A DNA stretch of 64,000 nucleotides from Betaproteobacteria bacterium (GTDB taxonomy: Bacteria > Pseudomonadota > Gammaproteobacteria > Burkholderiales > Usitatibacteraceae), in contig JAGRPO010000088.1 of NCBI GenBank assembly GCA_019449455.1, positions 459 to 64,458 on the forward strand, written 5' to 3'. Positions 18,264 through 44,533 of this stretch are shown here, in pieces. The position numbers were made by a program, and so were the translations under genes. The notes under the pieces were generated by a model that saw only the letters and a list, made by a program, of their open reading frames with translations, was not told the DNA's origin and ran no database searches. Positions within the stretch are counted from its first letter, which is position 1, and every line of letters begins with the position of its first letter.

Positions 18264-18300
18264 GGGGACGGTTCCCAGGAACCGTCCCCTTTTCGCTTTT
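18264..18300. terminator. Bidirectional intrinsic terminator / REP-like hairpin
   Basis: GGGGACGGTTCC-CAGG-AACCGTCCCC followed by TTTTCGCTTTT, between convergent genes. It shares the core GGGACGGTTCC with the 54053-54142 array. Confidence 0.75.
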
Positions 18301-18608
18301 CAGCCGGTGCTCCAGGCGCGCGGGCGCTTCATGCCCGCGATCTTGCAGGCCTGGCCGGGGTAGCCGTAGGGGAAGAGCTCGAAGAGGCGGTTGCGGGCGC
18401 CGGGGCCGAGGCGTTCCATGAGGTGCCAGATGACGAACCTCGCATCCGCGGTGATCTGGTGCTCCTCCCAGTAGCCGCGCATGAACCGGATCGCGTCCCA
18501 GTGGTCCGGTCCCAGTTCGATGCCTTCCTTGCGCGCAAGCGCCACCGCGACGTTCTCGGACCATTGGCTCGGGTCGACGAGATAGCCGTCGGCATCCAGA
18601 ACAGGCAT
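18300..18608 (-). CDS. DsrC/TusE family protein (atypical C-terminal arm)
   Basis: ATG at 18608 follows GGAAGG. MPVLDADGYLVDPSQWSE...HWDAIRFMRGYW...LFELFPYGYPGQACKIAGMKRPRAWSTG. Confidence 0.8.
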   Translation of the reverse strand: MPVLDADGYLVDPSQWSENVAVALARKEGIELGPDHWDAIRFMRGYWEEHQITADARFVIWHLMERLGPGARNRLFELFPYGYPGQACKIAGMKRPRAWSTG

Positions 18609-18723
18609 GTTGGATACACCTTCCATGGGCCAAATGGTAACGGATCGGGTTACTTCGTCAACCCCCCCCATCCGGGTTACCCCGGGAGGATTGGGCGAGG
18701 CCGGGCCCGGGGGGCGGGATGGG

Positions 18724-19857
18724 TCAGCCCAGCGGGTCCTCGCGGAACTTTTCCTGGATGCGCTCGATCTCGTCGCGCTGCCCGGCGAGGCCCTTCACGC
18801 ATTCCGCGTCGAGGTGCGTGCCCGCGAGCTGGTCGAGGATGGCGAAGGCCACGTCGTTCGTGTACGCGTCCTTGTAGGGGCGCTTGCTGGTGAGGGCGTC
18901 GAAGACGTCCGCCACCGCGACGATCCGCGCCTCCAGCGGGATGGCGTCGCCCGCGAGGCCGTAGGGATAGCCCCGGCCGTCGACGCGCTCGTGGTGCAGG
19001 AGGGCGATGTTCCTCACCACCTCGATGTCCGCGAGGGAGCCCAGCCCGAAATTGGTCAGCAGCTCGTCGATGATCGCCTGCCCGCGATTGGCGTGCGTGC
19101 GCATCACGTCCATCTCCTTGTCGGTGAGGCTGTCCGGCTTGAGCAGGATCGCGTCGGGGATGCCGATCTTCCCGATGTCGTGCAGCGGGGCGTAGGCCTG
19201 GATGCGCTCGATGTACTCGTCGTCGAGGTCGTGCCGCTCGGCGAGCGCGCGGGCGACGAGGCGGGCGTAGCGCGACATCCGGTCGAGATGGCTGCCCGTC
19301 TCGGTATCGCGGGCGTTCACGATGTGCCGCGCGCTCTCGAGGGCGGCCGAGAGGGTCCGCACCGCGGCGAGCTCCTGGACCACCAGCAGCGACACCAGGT
19401 GGCCGAAGATGTCGAGCTGCGCGAGGGCGGTCTCGGTGAACACGTCGGGCTCGCGGGAATTGAAGAACACGAACCCCAGGAACGCGCCGTTCGAGAAGAT
19501 GGGCATCGTGTAGCTCGCCGCGAAGCCGGAGCGGCCCAGGCGCCTCGAATGCTCGCTCTCCGCGCCCTCGAACGTGAGCATGTGCTGGATGACGCGCGGG
19601 TGCTTCTCCTCCAGGAGCCTGGCGAGCGACGGCACTTCGCCGAGCGGCGCCTGGTAATGGGGCAGGGGATCGTCGCCGTCGCTCGAGTGGACGAAGGTCT
19701 TGAGGAACGTGGTCTTCGGGTCGTAGATCGCGACCGCGATGCGGGCCACGAACGGCATGAAGGTGCGCACCGCCCAGTGGATCTCGCGGATCCGGGCGCG
19801 CAGCGACCCTTCGCCGTTGAGTGCCTGCAGCGCGTCGTGGTGTTCCGTTTCGGTCAT
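18724..19857 (-). CDS. GAF-like sensor / HD-GYP domain c-di-GMP phosphodiesterase
   Basis: ATG at 19857 overlaps the upstream stop (ATGA). Motifs: YAPLHDIGKIGIP (HD) and HHERVDGRGYPYGL (GYP). Confidence 0.88.
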   Translation of the reverse strand: MTETEHHDALQALNGEGSLRARIREIHWAVRTFMPFVARIAVAIYDPKTTFLKTFVHSSDGDDPLPHYQAPLGEVPSLARLLEEKHPRVIQHMLTFEGAESEHSRRLGRSGFAASYTMPIFSNGAFLGFVFFNSREPDVFTETALAQLDIFGHLVSLLVVQELAAVRTLSAALESARHIVNARDTETGSHLDRMSRYARLVARALAERHDLDDEYIERIQAYAPLHDIGKIGIPDAILLKPDSLTDKEMDVMRTHANRGQAIIDELLTNFGLGSLADIEVVRNIALLHHERVDGRGYPYGLAGDAIPLEARIVAVADVFDALTSKRPYKDAYTNDVAFAILDQLAGTHLDAECVKGLAGQRDEIERIQEKFREDPLG

Positions 19858-21684: not shown

Positions 21685-22398
21685 CTAGCCGGTGTACGTG
21701 CGCAGGCGCTCGATGTCGGGCACCGACACCGAACGGCCTTCCATCACGATGAGGCCGGCGTCGGCCAGCTCGTGGAGGATGCGCGAGAAGTACTCCGGCG
21801 TGAGGTTCAGCCGCGAGGCCACGATCATCTTGTTGGCGGGAAGCGTCACGCTCGCCGAGCGGGCGGAGCCGTCGGAAAGCGTGTCGTCGCGCAGCAGGTA
21901 GCCGATCACGCGCTCCAGGCCCGAGCGCAGCGAATACGCCTCCACGTCACGGATGAGCTGGTGAAGCTTCCTCGACATGCCGGCCAGCAGCCGGCGGGCG
22001 AAGCGCGGGTCGCGCTCGATCTCGTCGAGGACCATGCTCTTCGAGACGTGCAGCAGCAGCGAATCCTTCAGCGTCTGCGCGGAGATGACGTAGGGCATGT
22101 CCATGAAGAGGATCGCCTCCCCGAACGAGATGCCGGGGCCCATGATCTCGATCACCTTCTCCGAGCCCTGCGGCGAGGTGACGAAGAGCTTCACCTGCCC
22201 GTAGAGGACGACGTGGAATCCCTCGCAGCGGTCGCCGCGCGAGAAGAGAGTCTCGCCCTTCATCGCGTAGATGCGGCGCGTGCCGCCCGCTATGCGCGCG
22301 ATCTCCTCGGGCGTCAGGTCGCTGAACAGCGGGAGGTTCACCAGGAACTGCTCGACCGGGATGTCCGGCCCGCGCGCGCGCGGCTCTCCGGTTTGCAT
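21685..22398 (-). CDS. Crp/Fnr family regulator, Dnr/NnrR-like (no Fe-S Cys motif)
   Basis: ORF 21685..22398. LPLFSDLTPEEIARIAGG...GISFGEAILF... is the effector barrel. The HTH is IVASRLNLTPEYFSRILHEL. It lies 11 nt upstream of the LOV kinase start and 51 nt downstream of the respiratory operon. Confidence 0.88.
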   Translation of the reverse strand: MQTGEPRARGPDIPVEQFLVNLPLFSDLTPEEIARIAGGTRRIYAMKGETLFSRGDRCEGFHVVLYGQVKLFVTSPQGSEKVIEIMGPGISFGEAILFMDMPYVISAQTLKDSLLLHVSKSMVLDEIERDPRFARRLLAGMSRKLHQLIRDVEAYSLRSGLERVIGYLLRDDTLSDGSARSASVTLPANKMIVASRLNLTPEYFSRILHELADAGLIVMEGRSVSVPDIERLRTYTG

Positions 22399-22449: not shown

Positions 22450-23265
22450 TCACGACCCGACGGAAACGCGCCCGGGAAGGCCCGGGTCGGGCCGGGGGGC
22501 GGCCCGCGAGGAGAGCGCGGCGGCGATGGCCGCGCACAGCGCCGCCGAGGAAAGCAGGTTGTGCAGCCAGCGCGCCAGCGGCCAGCCGGAAGCGGCGACG
22601 GCGGCGAGGACCTGCGCCGCGATGAGCGCGACCGCCAGGCGGGCGGCGAGGCGCGCGCCCGGCGGCGGGGAGGCGCTGAACGCCAGCAGAGCCCATCCGG
22701 CGAGGCTCGCCCACGCGAGCGCGCGGTGGACGAGGGCGAGCGACGAGGGATCGGACGGCGGCGCGGTGGCGAGCACGCCGCCCGTCACCGTGGCGAGGGC
22801 GACGAGCGCGCTTGCCGCGACGAAGGGCGTCGCGAGGCGGCCGCGGGGGGCAAGCGCGGCGACCGCGAGGCCGGCCGACAAGGCGAGGAGGGTGAGGCCT
22901 CCGAGCAGGTTGGCGAGCATCACCGCGGGAGGCGCGGCGCCCGCCGAGCGCCGGCCGATGACCGCGAGCACCGCCACCAGCACGAGGACGGCGGCGGCCG
23001 CCACGCGGCGGCCGGGGCGCGCGGGGGCCTTCCACGCGACGGCGGCGATGAGGAGCGCGAGGACGGTCACGCCCATCGCCGCGACGCGATGGGCGAGCCG
23101 CACGGCATCGGAGAGCCCGAAACCGGTGCAGCCGCCGGCGGGGCAGGGCGCGGCCGCCAGCCGCAGCCAGGCGCTGGAGGCGACGACGACGAAGACGAGG
23201 GCGGCGCACGCCGCGGCCGACGCGACGAGCGCGCGGTCGTCCCGCGCGAGGCCGGGCAGGCTCAC
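22450..23265 (-). CDS. Polytopic membrane protein, weakly COX15/CtaA-like
   Basis: GTG at 23265 overlaps the upstream stop (GTGA). CPAGGC in the first loop, and AHRVAAMG / VHRALAWA helix motifs that recall the HR motifs of haem A synthase halves. Confidence 0.5.
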   Translation of the reverse strand: MSLPGLARDDRALVASAAACAALVFVVVASSAWLRLAAAPCPAGGCTGFGLSDAVRLAHRVAAMGVTVLALLIAAVAWKAPARPGRRVAAAAVLVLVAVLAVIGRRSAGAAPPAVMLANLLGGLTLLALSAGLAVAALAPRGRLATPFVAASALVALATVTGGVLATAPPSDPSSLALVHRALAWASLAGWALLAFSASPPPGARLAARLAVALIAAQVLAAVAASGWPLARWLHNLLSSAALCAAIAAALSSRAAPRPDPGLPGRVSVGS

Positions 23266-24683
23266 CGGACCCCGGCCGGGGCCCGCTGCCGGAGCGCGCC
23301 GATCACGACGATCACGAACGCGAGGCCGCCCAGGATGGCGACGAGGCCGCCCAGGCCCATCAGCGCCATGCCGGCCACCTCCTGGGACGTGCGCAGGACC
23401 TGCGCGGCGCCCGCCACCTTGCGCTCCACGCCGTAGCCGCCGGACCAGACCAGGCCCACGATGTGCGCGAGCTGCCCGCCGCCGTAGAGCCACGGCTGCC
23501 ACGCCGCCAGGCGGGACCGCGGCGCCGCGAAGCCCAGCTGCGGCAGCAGGTGGTAGGCGAGGCCCATGAAGGCGAGCGTCACGCCGACGATGCAGCCGTG
23601 GTAGTGCGCGGGGATCTTCACGTTGGGGCCGCTGATCGCGAACCCGATGAGGCCGCCGGCCGCGAAGAGCCCGATCGAGGCGGCGAGCGCGCCGAATATC
23701 GGGCGGCTGCGCCCGTCGAGCGCCGGCAGCCCGCGCATGGCCCAGAGCAACGCGAGCAGCACGGGCGGGATGGCGAGCCCGCCGCCGAATCGCATGAGCC
23801 ACGTCTGCAGCTTGTGGTGCTCGACCGACGCCACGGGGTGCGCGATGTAGATGGCAGGCGTCACGAGCACCGAGGCGAACGCGATGGTGAAGACGAGCAG
23901 CGTCACGCGCGGCGAGAGCGCCAGGCGCAGGCCCAGCGCCGAGGCGAGCCACAGCCAGCCCCCGAGCATGAGGAGCGTCCACGTGAACTGCAGCACGTGA
24001 CCGCCGCCCCAGAACAGCAGCTCGTAGTAGGCCTTGCGCTCGAGGTGCGGGGAGACGTCGAGGTACGACCAGCCGAACGCGGCCAGCGCGACGGCGGTCG
24101 CGGCCGCCGATCCCACGATGCCCCAGCGCAGCGCGGCCTCCCCGTCGAGGACGGATCCGGAGGACCGTGCCGCCCAGAACGTGCGTGCCACGGCGGCTGC
24201 CACGCCCGCGCCGATCGCGCCGAGCCCGCCGAGGAATACGGCGTTGTCGATGACCGGGATGTAATTGGCGAGCACCGGGACCGCGTGCCCCGCGAGAGGG
24301 GCGACGCACAGGGCGAGTGTCCCGGCCGCGCACAACGCGAGCGATGTCCAGCCCAGGGCGATGGCGCGCGAATCGCAGGCGAGGCTCCAGAGGACGCCGG
24401 CGAAGGCGAGGAACCACACCAGCACCGAGAGGTCGACGTGCGCGACGAGCGCCACCTGGAAGAAGTCCGCGACGGGAAACACCTCCTTCAGTCCGGGCGT
24501 GCGCGCGAGCACCAGCAGCAGCGAGAAGATGCCGGAGCCGACGAGGGCGGCGATGCCGAGCACCAGCCAGCCCGTGGCGAGCCGCGCGGAGGCGTCGCGC
24601 GCCACCGTGATCCCGTAGGCCGTGCCCCGGCCGGAACCCGCGGAGGATGCAGTGGGGAGATGAAGGGAGGGCAGGCTAGCCAT
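23262..24683 (-). CDS. Orphan haem-copper oxidase superfamily catalytic-subunit homologue (473 aa)
   Basis: ORF 23262..24683, 12-TM pattern. All six canonical His are present: LVAHVDL (helix II), LFWGGGHVLQF (helix VI), SVEHHKLQ (helix VII), IPAHYHGCIVG (helix X). There is no Tyr at His+4. The start overlaps the upstream gene by 8 nt. Confidence 0.8.
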   Translation of the reverse strand: MASLPSLHLPTASSAGSGRGTAYGITVARDASARLATGWLVLGIAALVGSGIFSLLLVLARTPGLKEVFPVADFFQVALVAHVDLSVLVWFLAFAGVLWSLACDSRAIALGWTSLALCAAGTLALCVAPLAGHAVPVLANYIPVIDNAVFLGGLGAIGAGVAAAVARTFWAARSSGSVLDGEAALRWGIVGSAAATAVALAAFGWSYLDVSPHLERKAYYELLFWGGGHVLQFTWTLLMLGGWLWLASALGLRLALSPRVTLLVFTIAFASVLVTPAIYIAHPVASVEHHKLQTWLMRFGGGLAIPPVLLALLWAMRGLPALDGRSRPIFGALAASIGLFAAGGLIGFAISGPNVKIPAHYHGCIVGVTLAFMGLAYHLLPQLGFAAPRSRLAAWQPWLYGGGQLAHIVGLVWSGGYGVERKVAGAAQVLRTSQEVAGMALMGLGGLVAILGGLAFVIVVIGALRQRAPAGVR

Positions 24684-26265
24684 GGTGCTTCTCCTGGCGT
24701 TTGGGTGGCAGGGTGTGGCGGGCCGCGCGCGGCCCCAGGCGGGAAAGCTCGGTGCGGAACGTGTCGAGTTCGACGCGCAGCGCGTCGAGATCGGTGAGCC
24801 CGGCGTGCGCGTACCGGACGCGCTCCCGCGGCACGCTCGAGCGCAGGGAGGGCTTGCGCCCGCCGTCCAGGCGGGCCGCGACGAGCGCGTCGCCCACGCG
24901 GAACTCGCAGTCGCCCTCCCGGCATCCCGCGACGAGCACGCCGTCGGCGCCCGCGCGAAGGGCGTATTCGACGAAGGAGGGAGGCACCATCGCGGCGCAC
25001 AGGAACTCGATCGCGGCCGTGGAGTGGCCCTCGAGGGACGCGACGCCGGCGCCCCAGCGGCAGCCGAACACCACGATGCGGGGGCCGCCCTCGAGCGCCG
25101 CCGCGCGCGCCTCGAGCCGCGCGCGCAGCCCGCCGATGGTCGCCGAGGGCATGTCGATGCCCGTGGCGAGCGCCTCGTCGCGGCGGAAAGGCGTCGAGGA
25201 CGGGCAGGCGCCGGTGCAGATGCCGCATCCCGCGCAGAGGTTCGCGTCGACCTGCGCCTGCCGGAGGTGCGGCCGGGCGTCGGTGCGCGGCACCATCACC
25301 ACGGCGTCGTAGGGGCAATCGGCGAAGCAGCGCGCGCAGCCGTTGCAGTTGGCGAGGTTCACGCGGGCCACCGGCGCGCGCGGCACGCGGGTGGCGTAGG
25401 GCAGCGCGGCGAGGCCGGCGAAGAACGCGGCGGTCGCCGCCCACAGGCCCTCGGGGCCGAGCCAGGCCATGGCCGGGTGCGGAAAGAGGTAGAACCAGTC
25501 GAGCGGGATCGTCGCGGGCAGCAGGCCGAGGTCGGCGGCGGGCATGAGCGAGACGGGCTTCGCGAGCGCGAGCGCCGCGAGCATCGCGGCCGTTCCCCAG
25601 GCAAGGGCGCGCGGCGGTTGGGTGCGCGCCGGGCTCACCCGCTGCACGTGGACCCACATCGCCGCGAGCATCGCTAGCGGCAGGCCGATGTGCAGGAAGA
25701 TGAGGAGCGAGAAGAAGCGGTCGTTCACCTGGTCGCCGGCGATGACGTTGCGGGTGAGCGCCCCGTCGAAGAACGGCAGCGCGTCGAGCCATTCGGTGGT
25801 CGCGGTGAGGCTCCATTGCGCGAGCTGGTCCCAGGGGAGCCAGTAGCCGCCGATGCCGGCGGCGAACATCAGGGCGAGCGCGAAGATGCCCGTGAGCCAG
25901 GCGAATCGCCTGAACGCGGCGTAGTGGCGGCGCGAGAGCTCGCGCACGAGATGCAGCGCCGTGACCGCCACGAGGGCGTCGGCGCTGTAGCGGTGCAGGG
26001 CGCGCGCGAACGCTCCCAGCGGCCAGGCGTTCCGGTCCATCGCGGCGAGGCTCTCGCGCGCGCCGGTGGCGCTGGTGTCGAAGCCGACGTAGATCCAGAT
26101 GCCGGAGGCGCAGCAGATCCAGAAGGAGAGGAAGCCGAGGGCGCCCAGGTGCCGCCACGGGTTCAGGCGCTGGCCGAAGGCGCGGTCGAAGAGCGCGTCC
26201 AGCCGCTCGACGATCGGGGCGGCGGGACCCGGCCCGGGAAGCGCGAAGGCGGCGGAAGCGTTCAT
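24676..26265 (-). CDS. Fusion protein: dihaem cytochrome b (bc-type N-domain) + 2x[4Fe-4S] ferredoxin + MvhD/FlpD-like domain
   Basis: ATG at 26265 within ORF 24676..26574. Cyt b His pairs: ALHRY...ALHLV and FLHIGLPL...WVHVQ, plus GYWLPWDQLA. Fe-S motifs CNGCARCFADCP and CAGCGICTGACP. MvhD-like motifs VVFGCRWG...LVAGCREGDCEF. Confidence 0.8.
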   Translation of the reverse strand: MNASAAFALPGPGPAAPIVERLDALFDRAFGQRLNPWRHLGALGFLSFWICCASGIWIYVGFDTSATGARESLAAMDRNAWPLGAFARALHRYSADALVAVTALHLVRELSRRHYAAFRRFAWLTGIFALALMFAAGIGGYWLPWDQLAQWSLTATTEWLDALPFFDGALTRNVIAGDQVNDRFFSLLIFLHIGLPLAMLAAMWVHVQRVSPARTQPPRALAWGTAAMLAALALAKPVSLMPAADLGLLPATIPLDWFYLFPHPAMAWLGPEGLWAATAAFFAGLAALPYATRVPRAPVARVNLANCNGCARCFADCPYDAVVMVPRTDARPHLRQAQVDANLCAGCGICTGACPSSTPFRRDEALATGIDMPSATIGGLRARLEARAAALEGGPRIVVFGCRWGAGVASLEGHSTAAIEFLCAAMVPPSFVEYALRAGADGVLVAGCREGDCEFRVGDALVAARLDGGRKPSLRSSVPRERVRYAHAGLTDLDALRVELDTFRTELSRLGPRAARHTLPPKRQEKHHG

Positions 26266-26294
26266 GGTCGTCCCGGCTCGTTCCTCGGCCGCGG

Positions 26295-26795
26295 CTAGCG
26301 GATGAGGATCCCGCCCTTGCCGGGCTCGAAGTCGATCACCAGCACGCGGCCGGGCTCGAGGCGCACCTGCTCCTCGCGCACGCGGTCGAACGTGCCCGCG
26401 GCATCGTCGGCGAGCGCCACGCGCAGCCGGTGCGTGCCGGCCGCCACGGGGATGCGCCGGTAGGCGACGGAGGCGCCGTCGCGCGAAAAGCCGGCGGGCT
26501 TCGCGACGATGTCGGCGACGGGGGCGCCGTCGAGCTCCACCTTCACGAGCACCGGGGCGCGCTCGCGGGGGCAATCCTCCGCGGCGCGCATGTTGGGGGC
26601 GAGCTTCGCGAGTTCCTCGGGCGTGCGCATGCGGCAGGCGACCTTGCGCTGTCCCGCGTGGTTGAGGGACAGGCGGATCAGCGCGTACCCCGGCGGCAGC
26701 GGCCTGAAGGCCGGCGCGGTCGAGAAGTAGCCGAGGGCGGCCGCGAAGGCGCCGTAGAGGAGGGCCTGGAGAACGTAACGGAAGGCGCGGTTCAC
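26295..26795 (-). CDS. Hypothetical single-TM protein of the operon
   Basis: GTG at 26795 overlaps the upstream stop (GTGA). N-terminal TM YVLQALLYGAFAAALGYF, then a soluble domain of about 130 aa with no motif I recognise. Confidence 0.55.
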   Translation of the reverse strand: MNRAFRYVLQALLYGAFAAALGYFSTAPAFRPLPPGYALIRLSLNHAGQRKVACRMRTPEELAKLAPNMRAAEDCPRERAPVLVKVELDGAPVADIVAKPAGFSRDGASVAYRRIPVAAGTHRLRVALADDAAGTFDRVREEQVRLEPGRVLVIDFEPGKGGILIR

Positions 26796-28729
26796 GGGCG
26801 GCCTCCCAGGCGCACGACGTCGGCGTCCCCGGCGTGGATGCGCGGCGCGAGCTTGAACGCGTCCGAGAAGCAGTCGTCGGGCGCGAGCCCCTGCTTGGCG
26901 AACGCCGGCTGCGCGGCCTCGACCATCTTCACCGAGCCGCACGCGTAGATGCGATGCCCCGCGAGGTCGGGATAGTCGGAGAGGATCGCCTCGTGGACGA
27001 GCCCGGTGCGGCCCTCCCACGCTTCCCCGGGCGCGGGGTCGGAGAGCACGGGCACGAAGCGGAAGTTCGGATGCTCCCTGGCCCAGCGCTCGGGGAGCTC
27101 GCGCAGGTACATGTCGGCGAGCGTGCGCGTGCCCCAGTAGAGCACCATGGGCCGCGTGATCCCGGCGTGGAACGCGTGCTCCACCATGCTCTTCACGGGC
27201 GCGAAGCCGGTCGCCCCCGCGACGAAGATCACGGGCTTGGCGCCGTCCTCGCGCAGGAAGAAGGAGCCCACGGGCCCCTCGAAGCGCACGCGGTCGCCGA
27301 CCTTCATGGCGGTGAAGACGTGCGTGGTGAAGCGGCCGCCCTGGATGGCCCGGATGTGCAGCTCGATGGGGCCTTGCTCGTGCGGGGCGGTGGCGAAGGA
27401 GAAGGCGCGCTTCTGGCCGTCGTCGAGGAGGATGTTGATGTACTGGCCGGCGTAGAACGGTGCCTTCCCGCCGCCCTCCACCTCGAGGCGCACGCGCATC
27501 ACGTCCTTCGCCAGGAGGTCGAGCGAGACGACGCGCGCCTCGTGCACGGCGACCGGGCGGGCCGCCTGCGCCGTGGGCTCGTACTCGATTTCCACGTCGG
27601 AGAGTGGCTTGGCCACGCAGGCGAGGACGCGCCCGGCCTCGCGGTCGGCGGCCGTGAGGGCGCTTTGCTGGTAGGCGCCCAGCGCCACCTCGCCGTGCAG
27701 CACCGTGCACTTGCACACGCCGCAGCCGCCGTTGCGGCAGTCGAAGGCCATGGGCAGGCCGTCCCTCAGGCACGCGTCGAGGAGCGACTCGTCCTCCTTC
27801 ACCGGGATGATGCGGTTGTCCGGATGGGCCAGGACATGGAAGGCGCGCAATTCGCGGCGCCCGAACTTCGGCGGCAGCCACGGCGCCATGACGGCGAGCA
27901 GCGTGAGTCCTCCCACGAGCAGCCACAGGGTGTCGGGCGACCAGCGGTAGAGCAGCGCGTAGGTCGGCATGTAGAACCAGTCGAACTCGATCGCGGCGGC
28001 CATCGTCGCGAGGTCGGCGGGCCCCTGGCTCAGGGCCGGCTTCACGACCGAGAGCACGACCATGGCCGCGCCCAGCGCGGCCATCAGCGGGTTCGGGGGC
28101 AGCGTCTTCGCCTGCGGCACGCGGTGGGTGTGGATCCACAGGAGCGCCAGCACGCCGAGCGGCAGCCCGATGTGGAGGAAGGAGAGCAGCGAGAAGAACC
28201 GGTCGTTCACGCTGTCCGCGACCAGGAAGTTGCGCATGAGCAGCCCGTTGAAGACCGGGAGCGCGTCGAACCACTCGGCGGTGGCCGTGACCGTGAACGC
28301 CGCGAGCTGGTCCCACGGCAGCATGTAGCCGTTGATGCCGGAGGCGTAGACGAGCCACAGCACGAGCACGCCGCTCACCCACGAGAACCAGCGGAACCCG
28401 CGGTGGCGGTCGAAGGCGAAGTGGCGCAGGAGGTGCAGCGCCATCGTGAGCACCATGCCGTCGGAGGCGTAGCGGTGCAGGCTTCGCATGATGCCCCCGG
28501 CCCACTTCTGCCCGTGCGTGAGCCGCTCGACCGACAGGTACGCCTCGGTGACGCTCGTGTCGAAGAAGGCGTAGAGGTAGAGCCCGCTCGCGACCACGAC
28601 CCAGAACAGCCAGTAGCTGATCGCCCCCAGGTGGTAGAGCGGGTTCAGGTGCTCGCCGAAGATCGCGTTGGCGGCCCGCTCGGCGAGAAGGAACAGGCGT
28701 TGGAGCAGTCGCTGCAGGAGCTTGAGCAT
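26792..28729 (-). CDS. Fusion protein: dihaem cytochrome b + plant-type [2Fe-2S] ferredoxin + FAD/NAD(P)H ferredoxin-reductase module
   Basis: ORF 26792..28729. Cyt b: SLHRY...ALHLL, GYMLPWDQLA, FLHIGLPL...WIHTH. [2Fe-2S]: CRNGGCGVCKC...LACVA. FNR module: RAFSFA (RxYS-type FAD site), VAGATGFAP (NAD(P)H site), YACGSVKM. Confidence 0.85.
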   Translation of the reverse strand: MLKLLQRLLQRLFLLAERAANAIFGEHLNPLYHLGAISYWLFWVVVASGLYLYAFFDTSVTEAYLSVERLTHGQKWAGGIMRSLHRYASDGMVLTMALHLLRHFAFDRHRGFRWFSWVSGVLVLWLVYASGINGYMLPWDQLAAFTVTATAEWFDALPVFNGLLMRNFLVADSVNDRFFSLLSFLHIGLPLGVLALLWIHTHRVPQAKTLPPNPLMAALGAAMVVLSVVKPALSQGPADLATMAAAIEFDWFYMPTYALLYRWSPDTLWLLVGGLTLLAVMAPWLPPKFGRRELRAFHVLAHPDNRIIPVKEDESLLDACLRDGLPMAFDCRNGGCGVCKCTVLHGEVALGAYQQSALTAADREAGRVLACVAKPLSDVEIEYEPTAQAARPVAVHEARVVSLDLLAKDVMRVRLEVEGGGKAPFYAGQYINILLDDGQKRAFSFATAPHEQGPIELHIRAIQGGRFTTHVFTAMKVGDRVRFEGPVGSFFLREDGAKPVIFVAGATGFAPVKSMVEHAFHAGITRPMVLYWGTRTLADMYLRELPERWAREHPNFRFVPVLSDPAPGEAWEGRTGLVHEAILSDYPDLAGHRIYACGSVKMVEAAQPAFAKQGLAPDDCFSDAFKLAPRIHAGDADVVRLGGRP

Positions 28730-28738
28730 GGGGGAGGT

Positions 28739-29575
28739 TCAGCCGGCGGCGCGCAGCCGGCGGCGGTGGCGTTGCCATTCGCGCAGCAGGTAGACGAGCG
28801 TGGTGAGGAGGATCGACAGGCCCGCGAGGATCTCGATCACCACGCCGTAGTCCAGGCGGTACCGGCCGGTGCGCGGATCGTAGACGGTGCACAGCAGGCG
28901 AACGCGGTCGACGATGTTGGCGAGGCTCGCCGCGGGCAGGGGCGCGTCGGTGAGGAGCGCCTTCAGCGGGCCCACGAGCATCGACATCTCGAAGTTCTCG
29001 CCGTAGACCTGCGCGGCCACGCGGCCGTTCGCGTCGAGGAGCGTCACCTGCGTGAGGTGGTCGAAGCCGCCGGCGGAGGCGGCGTAGCTGAAGCCCAGCT
29101 CGCGCGTGATCGCCTCCACCACCCCGGCCTCGGGGCTGAGGAAGTGCCAGTCGCGGCGGTCGATGCCCTGCTGGCGGGCGAAGGCGCGCATCGCCTCGGG
29201 CGTGTCGTAGGGGTAGTTGAAGCCGATGGTGGCCAGGGAGTAGCGCCCCGGGCCCAGCGCGCGGTCGGCCTCGGCGACGGCCTTGGCCAGGAAACGCGTG
29301 GTGGTGGGGCAGACCTGCGAGCAGCCGGTGTAGACGAAGCTCACCAGCACCGGCCGGCCGCGAAGCTGCGACAGGCGGAAGGGACTCCCGTCACCGGCCC
29401 GGAAGGCGTGGTCGCCCACCGGGGTGCCGATGGCGCGCTGGCTGCGGTCGAGGGCCGCGTCCGGCTCCAGGGTGGCGCCCTCGGGCGCTGCTCGCGCCTG
29501 CACAGCGCCGAGGACTGCCCCGAAGCAGAGCGCGGCCGCCGTCAGCAGCCAGCGCGGTCGGCATCCGTTGCCCAT
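28739..29575 (-). CDS. SCO1/SenC copper chaperone with an extra C-terminal TM segment
   Basis: ATG at 29575 within ORF 28739..30337. Signal/anchor, then thioredoxin-fold motif FVYTGCSQVCPTT (CxxxC) and a conserved His in GFDHLTQV. Confidence 0.88.
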   Translation of the reverse strand: MGNGCRPRWLLTAAALCFGAVLGAVQARAAPEGATLEPDAALDRSQRAIGTPVGDHAFRAGDGSPFRLSQLRGRPVLVSFVYTGCSQVCPTTTRFLAKAVAEADRALGPGRYSLATIGFNYPYDTPEAMRAFARQQGIDRRDWHFLSPEAGVVEAITRELGFSYAASAGGFDHLTQVTLLDANGRVAAQVYGENFEMSMLVGPLKALLTDAPLPAASLANIVDRVRLLCTVYDPRTGRYRLDYGVVIEILAGLSILLTTLVYLLREWQRHRRRLRAAG

Positions 29576-29580
29576 GCGGG

Positions 29581-30480
29581 CTAGCCTCGCCAGGCCGCGT
29601 CCGCGATCACGCCGATGAGAAGTAGCGAGAGCTGGGCGAGCGAGGCGTGGAAACTGCGCATCGCGGTGGCGCGCGAAGGATCCCTGGCAAGGCGGGCCGC
29701 GGCCCGCAGGAAGAGGAAGCCCCCCGCGATCGCGCCTGCGGCATAGAGCGGACCCAGGCCGAAGGCGAGCGGAAGGAACGAGGAGAAGACGAGGACGACG
29801 GTGCCGGCGAGGACCGCGCGTGCCGCGCGGGCGTCGCCGACGACGACCGGCAGCATCGGCACGCCGGCGGCCCGGTAGTCGTCGTGGTAGGCGATGGCGA
29901 GGCTCCAGAAATGCGGCGGGGTCCACAGGAACAGGACCCACGCGAGCGACGCGGCGACGGGGCCGACCTCGCCCGGCGCGACGCTCGTGGCGCCGGCGAG
30001 CACCGCGAAGCTGCCCGCGAGCCCGCCGATCACGATGTTCATCCAGGTGCGCCGCTTGAGGACGACGGTGTAGACGACGCCGTAGAAGAAGGCGCCCAGG
30101 AACACGAACAGGGCGGCCACCGGGTTCACCGCGACGGCCGTCGCGCAGACGGCGAGCGCCAGCATCAGGCCGATCACGCCCAGCCAGAACGGCCCGTGCG
30201 TGAGCCGGCCGGTGACGAACGCCCGGTGGCGCGTGCGCCCCATGCGCGCGTCGAGGTCGCGCTCGACGTACTGGTTGAACGCGCCGGCCGAAGCGGACGC
30301 GGCGATGACGCAGGCCACCAGCAGGGCGATCTGCCACGCGCCCGCCGCCTGCCGGCCGGGGACCGCGAGGGCTCCCGCGAGCGCGGTGAGCCCGATCGCG
30401 AACCCGATGCGCAGCTTGAACAGGTCGAAGAACAACCTCACCTGGTCGCGCATCGGGCCTGCATGTCCATCTTCGCTCAT
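29581..30480 (-). CDS. ctaB: Protohaem IX farnesyltransferase (haem O synthase)
   Basis: ATG at 30480 within ORF 29581..31944. NQYVERDLDARMGRTRHR (UbiA-type motif) and LFLWTPPHFWSLA. Confidence 0.9.
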   Translation of the reverse strand: MSEDGHAGPMRDQVRLFFDLFKLRIGFAIGLTALAGALAVPGRQAAGAWQIALLVACVIAASASAGAFNQYVERDLDARMGRTRHRAFVTGRLTHGPFWLGVIGLMLALAVCATAVAVNPVAALFVFLGAFFYGVVYTVVLKRRTWMNIVIGGLAGSFAVLAGATSVAPGEVGPVAASLAWVLFLWTPPHFWSLAIAYHDDYRAAGVPMLPVVVGDARAARAVLAGTVVLVFSSFLPLAFGLGPLYAAGAIAGGFLFLRAAARLARDPSRATAMRSFHASLAQLSLLLIGVIADAAWRG

Positions 30481-32238: not shown

Positions 32239-32793
32239 CTACCCTTTCTTCGGCTTGACGACGTAGAGCTTGCTCGCCATCGTGTGGTGGTTGATGCCGC
32301 AGTACTCGTTGCAGATGATCGAGTACGTGCCTTCCTTCGTCGGCGTGAGCGTCACGACGTGCTCGTAGCCGGGGTGGATCTGGATGTTGATGTTCTCGGG
32401 CTGCAGCGAGAAGCCGTGCAGCCAGTCGGTCGACATGATGTGCAGGCGGTAGGTCTGCCCTTCCTCGAGCTCGAGGACGGGCCAGAACTGCCAGAGGCGG
32501 GCGACGAGATAGACGTCGCTGCCGGGCACCGGATGCACCACGGGGATGTTCTGCTCGGTGACGGTGCGCACCGTGTGCTTGTCGACCATCGCCTGCGCCT
32601 TGGCGAGGTAGGCCTCGGGCGTGGTGCGGTAGGCCTCGTTGGAGAGGTTCTGCTTACCGTAGACGTGCCAGTACGGCATCATGAAGAACATCACCATGCA
32701 CCAGACGAAGGCGATGACGATCCAGGTGCCTTCGACGCGGTCCAGGGGCTGCTTCCACCAGAGTCGTTCGGCAGGGGGTTGTATGGCGCTCAT
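32239..32793 (-). CDS. Haem-copper oxidase subunit II with an intact CuA site
   Basis: ORF 32239..32793. It has one TM and then a cupredoxin domain with DWLHGFSL and CNEYCGINHHTM (CxExCGxxHxxM). Confidence 0.85.
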   Translation of the reverse strand: MSAIQPPAERLWWKQPLDRVEGTWIVIAFVWCMVMFFMMPYWHVYGKQNLSNEAYRTTPEAYLAKAQAMVDKHTVRTVTEQNIPVVHPVPGSDVYLVARLWQFWPVLELEEGQTYRLHIMSTDWLHGFSLQPENINIQIHPGYEHVVTLTPTKEGTYSIICNEYCGINHHTMASKLYVVKPKKG

Positions 32794-32817: not shown

Positions 32818-33000
32818 TTATTTGGCGATCGGAATGCCGACGATCTCCATCACGCCCCAGACGATGTACAGGACGGTGGGCATCGCGACGCCGAGGAACA
32901 GCAGGAGGAACGGGTTGTCGATCAGCTGCTGCATCATCGGGACCGGCTCGTCGTGCATGTCGTCGTCCGCCGGGGCGGGCGAGGCGGGTACCTGACTCAT
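32818..33000 (-). CDS. Small single-TM peptide, first gene of the operon (possible subunit IIa-like accessory)
   Basis: ATG at 33000 follows AGGAGGAG. MSQVPASPAPADDDMHDEPVPMMQQLIDNPFLLLFLGVAMPTVLYIVWGVMEIVGIPIAK. Confidence 0.5.
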   Translation of the reverse strand: MSQVPASPAPADDDMHDEPVPMMQQLIDNPFLLLFLGVAMPTVLYIVWGVMEIVGIPIAK

Positions 33001-33054: not shown

Positions 33055-33096
33055 ATGCTAGGCAGCCGGCCCGGGGAAAAAATTGAACCCGTTCAA
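33055..33096 (-). promoter_or_regulatory. Candidate class II Crp/Fnr(Dnr)-dependent promoter of the respiratory operon
   Basis: Perfect palindrome TTGAAC-CC-GTTCAA (33083-33096; TTGA-N6-TCAA core). On the minus strand the -10-like TAGCAT (33060 to 33055) begins 29.5 nt from the box centre, i.e. the classical -41.5 geometry. Confidence 0.5.
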
Positions 33097-33150
33097 GAAA
33101 AGCCGCTTTGGACCCCGGTGCCGTGGCAGATCGCCCGTCCGGCCGCTAAC

Positions 33151-34221
33151 ATGGAGCCCGTGAACGCCACCATGATCGATTCGTCCCCGGCGGCCACCGC
33201 CGCGGCTGCCCCGGCCGCCGGCCGCCGCGCCGTAGCGGCCTGGCTCCTCGCCTGCTGTGCCCTCGTCTTCGCCATGGTCGTCGTGGGCGGGGCCACGCGG
33301 CTCACCCACTCCGGCCTGTCCATCGTCGAGTGGCAGCCCCTGGTGGGAGCCCTCCCGCCGCTGAACGACGCGCAATGGGCCGAGACCTTCGGGAAGTACC
33401 AGCTCACGCCCGAGTTCAGGCTGCGCAACCACGACATGGACGTCGAGGGGTTCAAGACGATCTTCTGGTGGGAGTACTTCCACCGCCTCCTCGGCCGGCT
33501 CATCGGCGTGGCGTTCCTCGTGCCGTTCCTCTATTTCTGGCTTCGCGGGCGGCTCGACCGGCCGCTCGGGTGGAAGCTCGCCGGCATCTTCGCGCTGGGC
33601 GGGCTCCAGGGCGGGATGGGCTGGTACATGGTGAAGAGCGGCCTCGTGGCCGACCCGCAGGTGAGCCAGTTCCGGCTCACGGCGCACCTGGGGCTGGCGC
33701 TCCTCATCCACGCGGCCATGTTCTGGGTGGCGCACGAGATCCTCAGGCCCGCGCCCTCGGGCGCGCCGGCGGGCCTTCGCCGCGCGGGGCTCGCCTTCGC
33801 CGCCGTCGTCTTCGCGATGGCGCTCACCGGCGGCCTGGTCGCCGGCATCCGCGCCGGCTTCGCCTACAACACCTGGCCGCTCATGAACGGCCACTGGGTG
33901 CCGCCGGAGATCCTGATGATCGAGCCGTGGTGGCGCAACTTCGGCTACAACATGGCCACGGTTCAGTTCGTGCACCGGACGCTCGCGATCGTCGTCCTGG
34001 CCGGCGCCTGTTTCCTCGCCTGGCGCGTCTTCGCCACGCGCGCGGCGGGCACGCAGGCGCGCCTGGCCGCGGGAACGCTCGCCGCGGTCACCCTGCTGCA
34101 GGTGGCGCTCGGCATCGCGACGCTGCTGATGGCGGTCCCCGTCGGCCTGGGCACCGCGCACCAGGGCGGCGCCGTGGTCGTCCTCACCGCCGCCCTCTGG
34201 CTCGCCCGGGCCCTGCGCTGA
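33151..34221 (+). CDS. ctaA: Haem A synthase (COX15/CtaA type)
   Basis: ATG at 33151 within ORF 32953..34221. GGATRLTHSGLSIVEWQP, FWWEYFHRLLGR, VQFVHRTLA and GTAHQGGA are typical COX15 motifs. Confidence 0.88.
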   Translation: MEPVNATMIDSSPAATAAAAPAAGRRAVAAWLLACCALVFAMVVVGGATRLTHSGLSIVEWQPLVGALPPLNDAQWAETFGKYQLTPEFRLRNHDMDVEGFKTIFWWEYFHRLLGRLIGVAFLVPFLYFWLRGRLDRPLGWKLAGIFALGGLQGGMGWYMVKSGLVADPQVSQFRLTAHLGLALLIHAAMFWVAHEILRPAPSGAPAGLRRAGLAFAAVVFAMALTGGLVAGIRAGFAYNTWPLMNGHWVPPEILMIEPWWRNFGYNMATVQFVHRTLAIVVLAGACFLAWRVFATRAAGTQARLAAGTLAAVTLLQVALGIATLLMAVPVGLGTAHQGGAVVVLTAALWLARALR

Positions 34222-34248: not shown

Positions 34249-34818
34249 TCAGGGCTTCAGCGGGCAGTTCTTCACGCGCGGGCAGGCTTCGTCGTGGCGG
34301 TGCGCGATCGAGATGGCGATGGCCTTCGACCGCGAGGGATCGACGGTGCCCATCAGCTCGGCGAGCTCGACGCTTTCGCGCTCGAGGTGGCGGCGCATGC
34401 GCGCGAGGAAGTCGGCCGAGGTGCCGCCGGGAAAGGCCACCAGGACGCCGCCCGCGAGGGCGAGCAGCGGGATGCGAAGCGCATGCCACAGCTCGGCCAG
34501 CTCGCGGTGCTCCACGAGGAGCGAGGAGACGAGCTCGAAGGACTGGCCGCGGTGGGCCGGCGAGTCGGAGGCGGCGAGGACCGCCGGGAAGATGTCCGTT
34601 TCCTCGTCGACCACGTGCACGTTGATCGCCTCGTCGATCTCCGCGACCAGCGCGCCGGCGCGACCGGACAGGCCGGCGGGCGGCGGGGTCGGGACGGCGG
34701 CGAGCTCGGACGCGAGCGCCTCCAGGCGATCGAGCAGCCCGGCAATGCAGCGGTGGCACTGCCCGAGCGAATCGCGCGGGGACGTAACGCCGGTCTGTTC
34801 GGACTGCGGATCTGGCAT
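34249..34818 (-). CDS. Hemerythrin-like (HHE cation-binding) domain protein
   Basis: ATG at 34818 follows GGAGGG. Spaced His/Glu motifs: CHRCIAGLLDRLE, NVHVVDEETDIFP, LVEHRELAELWH, RRHLERE. The assignment is tentative. Confidence 0.5.
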   Translation of the reverse strand: MPDPQSEQTGVTSPRDSLGQCHRCIAGLLDRLEALASELAAVPTPPPAGLSGRAGALVAEIDEAINVHVVDEETDIFPAVLAASDSPAHRGQSFELVSSLLVEHRELAELWHALRIPLLALAGGVLVAFPGGTSADFLARMRRHLERESVELAELMGTVDPSRSKAIAISIAHRHDEACPRVKNCPLKP

Positions 34819-44127: not shown

Positions 44128-44533
44128 GGGCGATCCATCCTCCGGAAGCCGGGTCGGGCTCGATGCGCATCGGTGCGAGCGATCGCGTCGCCGGGCCGGC
44201 GGCGACGCTGCCGTCGGCGCGATAGCGCGACCCGTGGCATGGGCAGACCACTTCGTCGCCGACCACGCGCTCGATCCGGCAGCCGAGGTGGGTGCAGCGC
44301 CCCGAAAACGCGCGCGGGGCCCCGTCGCCGCCCCGGTAGACGATCGCGCCGTCGATGATGGAGAGCCCCATGGCGGCGTCGGCCGGGATGGACACCGCGC
44401 CGGGAGGCCGGCGGGACTGCTCGCGCCGAAGCAGGGACACGAGCAAGCCGGCGAGCGGGAGGCCGGCCACGATCGCGAGGGCCCGCCTGAAAAACCTTCG
44501 CCGAGACGCCGAGTTCGCGAGCCGGAAGCTCAT
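44114..44533 (-). CDS. Rieske [2Fe-2S] protein, Tat-exported
   Basis: ATG at 44533 within ORF 44114..45619. Tat signal SRRRFFRRALAIVAGL. CTHLGC ... CPCHGS boxes. Confidence 0.88.
   Translation of the reverse strand: MSFRLANSASRRRFFRRALAIVAGLPLAGLLVSLLRREQSRRPPGAVSIPADAAMGLSIIDGAIVYRGGDGAPRAFSGRCTHLGCRIERVVGDEVVCPCHGSRYRADGSVAAGPATRSLAPMRIEPDPASGGWIARASS

Follow-up and report, generated by a model that had tools for sequence, protein, structure and literature searches.

The 64,000-nucleotide window analysed here, from contig JAGRPO010000088.1 of a Usitatibacteraceae genome (assembly GCA_019449455.1; G+C content about 70%), raises the question of why two neighbouring genes each join a dihaem cytochrome b of the bc type to soluble redox domains, and to different ones. 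Protein A continues from its cytochrome b part into a plant-type [2Fe-2S] ferredoxin and a flavin module for NAD(P)H, and protein B into two [4Fe-4S] clusters and an MvhD/FlpD-like domain. We describe the domain content, conserved ligands, helix homology, gene linkage and fusion variants of both proteins, from which we infer the direction of electron flow, its acceptor and heterodimerisation. In our preferred reading, to which we give a probability of roughly 45%, A and B would be the membrane-integral electron-transfer subunits of an eNOR-type nitric oxide (NO) reductase module that is expressed under low O2/NO. The architecture is widespread and has already been pointed out in one preprint, so that this is not its first sighting; what this work adds is a set of fusion variants and conserved partners, which make the testable models more precise.

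Assembly errors and frameshifts, which the preliminary description of the locus had named as a possible origin of the fusions, are ruled out by full-length homologues with the same domains, by a genome scan and by public gene calls, and the observation itself stands far beyond chance. At E ≤ 1e-5 we found 4333 homologues of A and 2247 of B, totals that also count single-domain matches, and architecture was judged on the best 120 of each search. All of the best 120 homologues of A carry the five Pfam families at 63–99% identity, including shortened members of about 580–600 amino acids (aa) (P0027 and P0033), and the 121st match (P0096, 475 aa) is a fragment without the cytochrome b domain. Nearly all of the best 120 homologues of B share the full domain set, P0166 lacking FlpD. 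The genome scan, a pattern search of one genome per species, gave at least 598 matches; tblastn confirmed 574 of these 598, so that at least 574 genomes at the species level contain a relative. A 127-kb metagenome contig (JGI 3300040722 / ENA ERZ3898269) matches the window over 21.6 kb around B with the same genes and a copy of B that is 100% identical. The likely start of B, the ATG at 26265, agrees with two independent public gene calls. Sources name the homologues of A and B only generically, for example as "cytochrome b N-terminal domain-containing protein" or "hydrogenase iron-sulfur subunit". The 80 genome loci kept for synteny counts (L001–L080) stem mostly from metagenome-assembled genomes labelled Burkholderiales, Betaproteobacteria, Casimicrobiaceae, Usitatibacter(aceae) or Pelomicrobium, with few other labels, and include the isolate Pelomicrobium sp. 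G1.

The cytochrome b parts of A and B are paralogues, as had been proposed from the sequence of the window. Across family members they are 39–51% identical and share 58 invariant positions, among them all four haem histidines (H85/H99 and H186/H200 in A numbering; conserved in 81 sequences of A), with 13 residues between partners; in helix D this spacing is of the bc1 rather than the b6 type. Both proteins score above the gathering cut-offs of PF00033 / PF13631. The first 200 residues or so align to cytochrome b6 (E 7e-22), with the histidines over the b6 haem ligands, and the best PDB matches are cytochromes b6. The profile of residues ~205–295 aligns to residues 43–119 of b6f subunit IV (E 3e-5), with residues ~215–290 covering its helices E–F, and the full profile to yeast cytochrome b as far as residue 312. 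Homology stops after helix F, so that the core comprises helices A–F only (those of b6 and the first two of subunit IV); helices G and H, which would complete an eight-helix core or a three-helix subunit IV, are missing. A crude hydropathy scan recovers every core helix except the amphipathic helix B, and the AlphaFold2 model of A, which is of low confidence (pLDDT 61.6, pTM 0.42), has six long helices in its secondary structure. The cysteine of b6 that binds haem cn (Cys35) is His or Tyr in A and B. The homology of the six helices to b6 and subunit IV suggests a cytoplasmic location for the N-terminus and for the end of helix F, which would also settle the topology question of the preliminary description in favour of cytoplasmic C-termini. 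The iron-sulfur and flavin modules would therefore be placed where NAD(P)H and iron-sulfur cluster assembly are found.

On one point the preliminary description needs correction. It had found no evident PEWY motif and had proposed a quinone-independent use of the haems. In the alignment with the subunit IV profile, 'lelDWfYL' lies over 'LEILPEWYL', which puts a variant motif, xDWF(Y), at the PEWY position; its residues D250 and W251 are invariant in both families. The cd-loop motif GYxLPWDQ is likewise kept in both (GYMLPWDQ here, GYSLPWDQ in b6). Because the Asp-Trp pair of the Qo loop and the cd-loop motif are conserved, a quinone pocket on the positive (p) side of the membrane has to be reckoned with, and quinone independence is unsupported.

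Known cytochromes b resemble A and B in part. Those of bc1 and b6f complexes (PetB plus PetD, QcrB) have in common with them the four histidines in helices B and D, the cd-loop and helices E–F, whereas A and B have six helices, a replaced PEWY motif, no linked Rieske protein or cytochrome c1/f, and cytoplasmic redox modules behind helix F. The best-scoring cytochrome b model in NCBIfam is ExtP (NF040969; E 1e-28 for A and 1.4e-28 for B), a b-type cytochrome of a selenite/tellurite reduction operon; ExtP is a four-helix protein of 205 residues without fused modules, and A and B reach about 100 bits, far below the cut-off of 290. The NOX/FRE family and MsrQ with Fre also lead electrons from cytoplasmic NAD(P)H through a flavin and two stacked b haems to an acceptor at the outer face, but they use the unrelated ferric-reductase domain and have no iron-sulfur cluster between flavin and haem.

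Protein A matches its Pfam families well above the curated cut-offs (Cytochrome_B 1.5e-21, Fer2 7.7e-16, FAD_binding_6 5.4e-14, NAD_binding_1 3.4e-22). The cluster cysteines C331/336/339/371 and the motifs RxFSFA (here RAFSFA), GxTGFAP (GATGFAP) and YACGS are conserved in 81 sequences, which bears out the domain assignment made earlier from the sequence; every motif quoted then was found in the translations of A and B. The nearest kin of the C-terminal half are NADH-oxidising reductases in which a ferredoxin (Fd) domain precedes an FNR-type module (NCBIfam: BenC 7e-60, NAD(P)H-flavin reductase 5.5e-57, MmoC 3.8e-56, NqrF 1.7e-33; best PDB match: 5ogx, 1.2e-50). A reaches no NCBIfam equivalog cut-off (BenC NF040810, 202.9 bits against 430; nqrF TIGR01941, 116 against 295). 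NqrF is a membrane-tethered entry point for NADH. NqrF and reductases of the BenC/MmoC type share with A the order of plant-type [2Fe-2S], FAD and NAD(P)H domains, but theirs sit on a single anchor helix or are soluble, and that of A stands behind a dihaem cytochrome b.

The fusion described for B is equally well borne out. Pfam matches it, again well above the curated cut-offs, to Cytochrome_B (2.7e-20), a Fer4 dicluster (~1e-8) and FlpD (PF02662, 5.3e-15; 55.9 bits against a cut-off of 22.3), and HdrA2 is among its NCBIfam matches (1.4e-26). Twelve cysteines are kept in at least 80% of 61 sequences, namely the eight of the two CxxCxxCxxxCP motifs and the MvhD-like C402, C423, C447 and C452, which, following MvhD precedent, we take to be [2Fe-2S] ligands. 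Pfam finds no flavin domain in B. MvhD of Mvh:Hdr complexes and QmoC/HdrE have in common with B an FlpD domain with four cysteines, or two [4Fe-4S] clusters attached to a dihaem membrane protein. The b-type cytochrome of heterodisulfide reductase (Hdr) and Qmo is, however, NarI-like, whereas that of A and B is of the bc type. Genes for Hdr or hydrogenase subunits are missing from the 10 kb on either side of B and from the other contexts examined, and no HdrA-, HdrB- or CCG-domain proteins are encoded nearby.

The decisive context for A and B, which the preliminary description did not touch on, is their gene cluster, and their linkage to eNOR is near-obligatory. On the minus strand the order is a 60-aa open reading frame (ORF), a CuA subunit, eNOR subunit I, CtaB, SCO1, A, a 166-aa ORF, B and a divergent haem-copper-oxidase homologue of 473 aa that we call HCO473, followed by a 271-aa membrane protein, a Crp/Fnr regulator, a PAS histidine kinase and a FixJ-type regulator (Table 1). 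In an alignment of subunit I with the B-family oxidase 7deg_A, GHSSQQ lies over GHPVVY, so that the cross-link tyrosine is replaced by glutamine. Glutamine at this position is diagnostic of eNOR, with asparagine in sNOR and tyrosine in oxygen reductases (PMC8756737, Table A4). The GHSSQQ-type motif is conserved in 58 aligned sequences and in three distant contexts, and AHH and HFH are present; the six histidines, the glutamine and the CuA subunit that mark eNOR were thus all found. We conclude from these diagnostic residues that subunit I is of the eNOR type and predict NO reductase activity for it; such activity has been shown only for the eNOR of Rhodothermus marinus (PMC11214002). An identity as sNOR, guessed from the linkage to SenC, is ruled out by the glutamine, which is not asparagine. 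The 60-aa ORF has 54 related loci by tblastn, occurs also in the distant contexts L083 and L087, and is a candidate small eNOR subunit comparable to subunit IIa of ba3 oxidase.

Among the 80 loci, A was found in 80, the 166-aa gene in 77, SCO1 and B in 73 each, CtaB in 66, eNOR and HCO473 in 65 each, the CuA subunit in 54 and haem A synthase (CtaA) in 29. Where contigs were long enough for gene order to be judged, the synteny from the small ORF to HCO473 is kept in nearly every locus, a few being without B. Extra DNA between the 166-aa gene and B in some loci holds only non-conserved ORFs. The start of the 166-aa gene overlaps the stop of A by 4 nt, and that of the 271-aa gene the stop of HCO473, also by 4 nt; both overlaps appear in both public gene calls, and an overlap of B with HCO473 depends on the start chosen. 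Outside the closest relatives the 271-aa protein can no longer be recognised. A palindromic Fnr/Dnr-type box precedes the 60-aa ORF and subunit II; of 50 loci, 33 have a TTGA-N6-TCAA box at 262–414 bp before subunit II, where chance would give 0.054 per 450 bp, and in L001–L080 the box mostly takes the form TTGAT-N4-ATCAA. A scan of the cluster for promoters and terminators found nothing exceeding the shuffled background. Because synteny, gene overlaps, the fusions described below, the pairing of B-type proteins with eNOR in distant lineages, the Fnr/Dnr-type box and the adjacent Crp/Fnr and PAS-kinase genes coincide, we favour a role of A and B in the eNOR module.

Table 1. Positions of the features discussed, in coordinates of the 64,000-nucleotide window.
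Feature	Position	Strand	Evidence or remark
Protein A, 645 aa	26792-28729	-	ATG start
A: cytochrome b helices A-F (aa 1-290)	27860-28729	-	
A: plant-type [2Fe-2S] ferredoxin (aa 304-375)	27605-27820	-	Pfam
A: FAD_binding_6 (aa 399-490)	27260-27535	-	Pfam
A: NAD_binding_1 (aa 502-607)	26909-27226	-	Pfam
Protein B, 529 aa	24676-26265	-	inside ORF 24676-26574
B: cytochrome b helices A-F (aa 1-295)	25381-26265	-	
B: two [4Fe-4S] clusters (aa 300-357)	25195-25368	-	
B: MvhD/FlpD-like [2Fe-2S] domain (aa 414-511)	24733-25026	-	Pfam
HCO473, divergent haem-copper-oxidase homologue, 473 aa (alternative start 447 aa)	23262-24683	-	Pfam COX1 3.9e-15
166-aa single-pass membrane protein with beta-sandwich	26295-26795	-	GTG start
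Haem-copper subunit I, eNOR type, 573 aa	30507-32228	-	Pfam COX1 1.5e-66
eNOR subunit II with CuA site (CNEYCGINHHTM)	32239-32793	-	
60-aa single-helix ORF, directly upstream of subunit II	32818-33000	-	
Haem O synthase (CtaB/CyoE)	29581-30453	-	TIGR01473 score 244.9, cut-off 210.3; start as in public gene call
SCO1/SenC copper chaperone	28739-29575	-	Pfam SCO1-SenC 1.2e-10; public gene call
Haem A synthase (COX15/CtaA), divergently oriented	33055-34221	+	PF02628
Palindromic Fnr/Dnr-type box TTGAACCCGTTCAA, upstream of 60-aa ORF and subunit II	33083-33096		
271-aa Ala-rich membrane protein, seven predicted helices	22450-23265	-	no Pfam match
Crp/Fnr-family regulator	21685-22398	-	Pfam
Rieske [2Fe-2S] domain (CTHLGC...CPCH), C-terminal end of long ORF	about 44114-44400	-	Pfam 7.3e-13
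DsrC-like gene	18300-18626	-	
GAF/HD-domain protein	18724-19857	-	
Hemerythrin gene	34249-34818	+	

HCO473 directly follows B. It keeps the three haem-ligand histidines and the first CuB histidine (H82 and H229 in 63/63 aligned sequences, H360 and H362 in 62/63); the HH pair is found in only 54/63 and 47/63 and is absent in distant homologues, and the tyrosine position is Phe. The protein has no sequence match in the PDB and no subunit II gene. Its diagnostic residues do not fit eNOR, sNOR, cNOR/qNOR, gNOR or nNOR; it may be a haem-only relay or a scaffold rather than a catalyst. The 166-aa protein matches nothing in Pfam or NCBIfam; it has 1766 homologues, of which the best 120 are all unnamed or called 'hypothetical protein'. 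Its AlphaFold2 model (pLDDT 87.5) consists of one transmembrane helix and a beta-sandwich, for which Foldseek gave no PDB match better than E 4.5e-3 and nothing specific. Close homologues have two invariant cysteines (C54, C75) and two histidines. A role as Rieske substitute or metal site was rejected, as H46 is lost in a fused distant homologue and the beta-sandwich is generic; C54 and C75 more likely form a periplasmic disulfide.

Fusion variants were sought with the profile of the six-helix core, which matched 507 clusters at E ≤ 1e-30 among 1.84 billion cluster representatives; selected long members were scanned with Pfam, and the contexts of lineages without A were viewed over 10 kb on either side. 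Proteins of the P0368 type (~690 aa) are B-type proteins with a C-terminal homologue of the 166-aa protein, which implies that the two proteins associate; since the fusion is C-terminal and the helix crosses out of the cytoplasm, the beta-sandwich would be periplasmic. P0397 (761 aa; two full-length copies on separate contigs) joins a B-type core to a homologue of HCO473 that is 58% identical to that of the window; the next gene downstream is nirS. P0467 has cytochrome b and two [4Fe-4S] clusters only. P0376 (827 aa; L083, 10001–12484) combines cytochrome b with Flavodoxin_1, FAD_binding_1 and NAD_binding_1 domains, as in P450 reductase, and occupies the position of the Fd-FNR fusion; the eNOR cluster around it is otherwise equivalent and in L083 comprises a small ORF, CuA, eNOR, UbiA, B, a 167-aa ORF, an HCO473-like protein, an LpqE-like protein, CtaG, SCO1, P0376 and NnrS. 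In L085 and L087 B-type proteins adjoin eNOR, and A is absent from the stretch viewed. Neighbours in L085 include nirS, a cupredoxin and a multihaem cytochrome; in L087 there is a NirK-like multicopper/cytochrome c ORF.

Several further genes lie around these clusters. In the window, the DsrC-like and GAF/HD genes stand downstream of the two-component genes and the hemerythrin gene beyond haem A synthase, an arrangement confined to close relatives (5–6 loci). A DsrC-like gene, a hemerythrin and a DUF2249 gene are also found near the L083 cluster. DsrC was rejected as a conserved partner of A and B, since it occurs only in close relatives and in that one distant context. In distant lineages, nitrite reductase genes stand beside B-type/eNOR clusters, encoding cd1 NirS in L084 (2396–3889) and L085 (15794–17428) and the NirK-like protein in L087 (936–2876).

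An oxidase homologue without a subunit II allows another view of A, as a general NAD(P)H:quinone oxidoreductase. A would then reduce quinone in its p-side pocket, in the manner of dihaem succinate:menaquinone reductases, and HCO473, which has no CuA subunit, may oxidise quinol, with no direct protein transfer to eNOR. The conserved Qo-like motifs, the missing subunit II and the NqrF/BenC-like cytoplasmic module agree with this, but the near-obligatory eNOR linkage, the flavin-less B and the fusions to HCO473 and the 166-aa protein would be left unexplained, and quinone reduction from NADH across the membrane would waste both redox energy and membrane potential. We consider this explanation quite improbable.

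The neighbourhood of A also invites the idea that A (and B) send reducing power outward for the maturation of eNOR, either to the O2-dependent haem A synthase that makes its haem As or to SCO1 and periplasmic copper, which would stay reduced for insertion at CuA/CuB. It gains plausibility from the neighbouring CtaB, CtaA, SCO1 and CtaG genes and from the type of the A module, Fd-FNR modules being the classical reductases of multicomponent monooxygenases. A directly follows CtaB and SCO1, CtaA is divergently encoded in the window, and the L083 cluster has both CtaG and the LpqE-like protein. Mitochondrial Cox15 depends on ferredoxin and ferredoxin reductase. Furthermore, CtaA is encoded in many eNOR operons, and the enzyme works with haem As (PMC11214002). 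However, the tightest couplings and fusions link B to HCO473 and to the 166-aa protein, not A to CtaA or SCO1; B-type proteins accompany eNOR where A is absent; and two dihaem wires would be elaborate for a maturation device. A biogenesis function thus appears improbable to us.

Two literature sources touch on the fusions, and we found no biochemical study. A preprint on Ferrigenium straubiae (bioRxiv 10.64898/2026.01.22.701106, May 2026) reports an operon of eNOR II, eNOR I, haem O synthase, sco1, an "eNOR scaffold protein" and two "rather unusual" genes that partly resemble the cytochrome b chain of bc1. A role as quinol:NAD+ oxidoreductase is proposed for one of them, in which cytochrome b is combined with FeS, FAD and NADH domains; the other combines cytochrome b with FeS. 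The authors speculate about a supercomplex that couples NO reduction to NAD+ reduction, and the pair was found in a published proteome under denitrifying Fe(II)-oxidising conditions, which accords with our preferred reading. This pair (IMG 2878407319 and 2878407323), which we matched by description alone, has the same operon order as the window. The preprint says nothing of the paralogy of the two proteins, of an MvhD domain or of a PEWY-like motif, nor of fusion variants or of a second haem-copper homologue as a partner, and its direction of electron flow, from quinol to NAD+, is opposite to the one favoured here. The other source is a table entry for a Chloroflexi ORF with cytochrome c, cytochrome b6, FeS and FlpD (PMC8756737); the eNOR paper (PMC11214002) does not mention these cytochrome b genes. 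The preliminary description had asked whether such architectures already have a defined function: the architecture has indeed been described, and its function has only been proposed.

In our preferred reading, A and B would each hold two bis-His b haems in a six-helix core of the bc/b6 type, one haem near each membrane face. In A, electrons would pass from NAD(P)H to FAD, to the [2Fe-2S] cluster directly after helix F, to the haem on the negative (n) side and then to the p-side haem. The chain of B would consist of the MvhD [2Fe-2S] cluster, the two [4Fe-4S] clusters and the n-side and p-side haems, and would link to a cytoplasmic partner, possibly A itself, if A:B is the heterodimeric equivalent of the obligate cytochrome b dimer. 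Cytochromes b of the bc type form dimers, which makes a heterodimer of A and B whose p-side haems interact an attractive idea; B would then have a function without a further cytoplasmic partner. The p-side acceptor could be quinone in a Qo-like pocket, the haems of HCO473, or CuA/eNOR. HCO473 is a candidate because its homologue is fused to a B-type core and because it adjoins B. The net result would be a self-contained route from NAD(P)H to NO (or O2) that bypasses bc1 and cytochrome c.

Four considerations favour outward flow. The flavin modules belong to types that oxidise NAD(P)H; in one lineage a module of the P450-reductase type has taken the place of Fd-FNR; electrons moving outward run with the membrane potential, whereas quinol-to-NAD+ transfer would oppose it and climb about 400 mV besides; and the cluster has no linked gene for a Rieske protein, nor for any other evident one-electron acceptor of high potential such as Qo-type bifurcation needs. 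Diflavin modules of the P450-reductase type are NADPH oxidisers and are not known to work in the other direction. No Rieske-type ORF (CxHxGC...CxxH) was found in the cluster or in loci L001–L087, and no CxxCH ORF on the cluster strand. The sole Rieske domain of the window lies about 15 kb from the cluster and is probably that of a small Rieske ferredoxin; none of the related loci has it linked to the genes for cytochrome b.

These considerations bear directly on the proposal of the Ferrigenium preprint, a quinol:NAD+ (or quinol:ferredoxin) oxidoreductase with Qo-type bifurcation powered by NO reduction. One electron of quinol would go to eNOR/HCO473 in place of Rieske/c1, the other over the b haems and FeS/FAD to NAD+ (in A) or to an MvhD-linked low-potential acceptor (in B). 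Such a device would make use of the invariant xDWF(Y) and cd-loop residues and of the close coupling to a terminal reaction of very high potential; MvhD domains are a typical feature of Hdr/Mvh complexes that bifurcate electrons, as reflected in the HdrA2 match of B, and autotrophs such as Ferrigenium need NADH. But a high-potential one-electron acceptor of the required kind is missing from the cluster and from the 80 loci, and flow from the p-side to the n-side would run against the membrane potential in addition to the climb, as judged from standard potentials. The Fd-FNR module belongs with NqrF and the NADH-oxidising reductases of oxygenases, its diflavin replacement is not known to run towards NADP+ reduction, and the carriers are apparently mostly Burkholderiales metagenome-assembled genomes without an evident need for such a device. 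A bifurcating-style use, which the preliminary description had also raised, is thus disfavoured by membrane polarity and by the diflavin-replacement lineage, and we hold this form of it to be very improbable. A broader proposal, in which a heterodimeric Rieske-less A:B core, the 166-aa protein and HCO473 would form a new respiratory complex, leading electrons from NAD(P)H (with a second FeS/MvhD-linked donor or acceptor) straight to eNOR without bc1 or cytochrome c, or else carrying out NO-driven Qo bifurcation to NAD+ or ferredoxin, seems to us rather unlikely.

Several points weigh against our preferred reading. Haem binding, NAD(P)H oxidation and the partners of A and B are predictions from sequence, and the AlphaFold2 model of A is too poor to judge the proximity of cluster and haem. 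eNOR has its own CuA subunit, and a periplasmic cytochrome c or cupredoxin could serve it entirely; a cupredoxin and c-type cytochromes are indeed encoded near eNOR in L085. The conserved Qo-like motifs may argue that the p-side partner is quinone and not a protein. Electrons that pass from the n-side to the p-side use up membrane potential, a cost that is sensible only for detoxification or to drive a difficult reduction, and spending NADH on NO is costly for Fe(II)-oxidising autotrophs. Finally, B has no flavin and no evident cytoplasmic partner.

The system is open to experiment, as relatives of the carrier lineages are in culture (Pelomicrobium sp. G1 and Usitatibacter records) and Ferrigenium straubiae, with homologues in its proteome, is available in enrichment culture. 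If the bifurcation proposal were true, this would be the first NADH-making bifurcation of the Qo type. If instead our preferred reading holds, A and B would form a further branch of the bc-complex family, one that does without a Rieske protein, and would be a bacterial counterpart, on a different haem scaffold, of the transmembrane wire of NADPH oxidases. Reductases of the eNOR type are reportedly common in nature and contribute to nitrous oxide (N2O) formation (PMC11214002). A dedicated input through transmembrane cytochromes b fed by NAD(P)H or iron-sulfur clusters would change the bioenergetics of denitrification and NO detoxification in the abundant Burkholderiales of soil, groundwater and wastewater.

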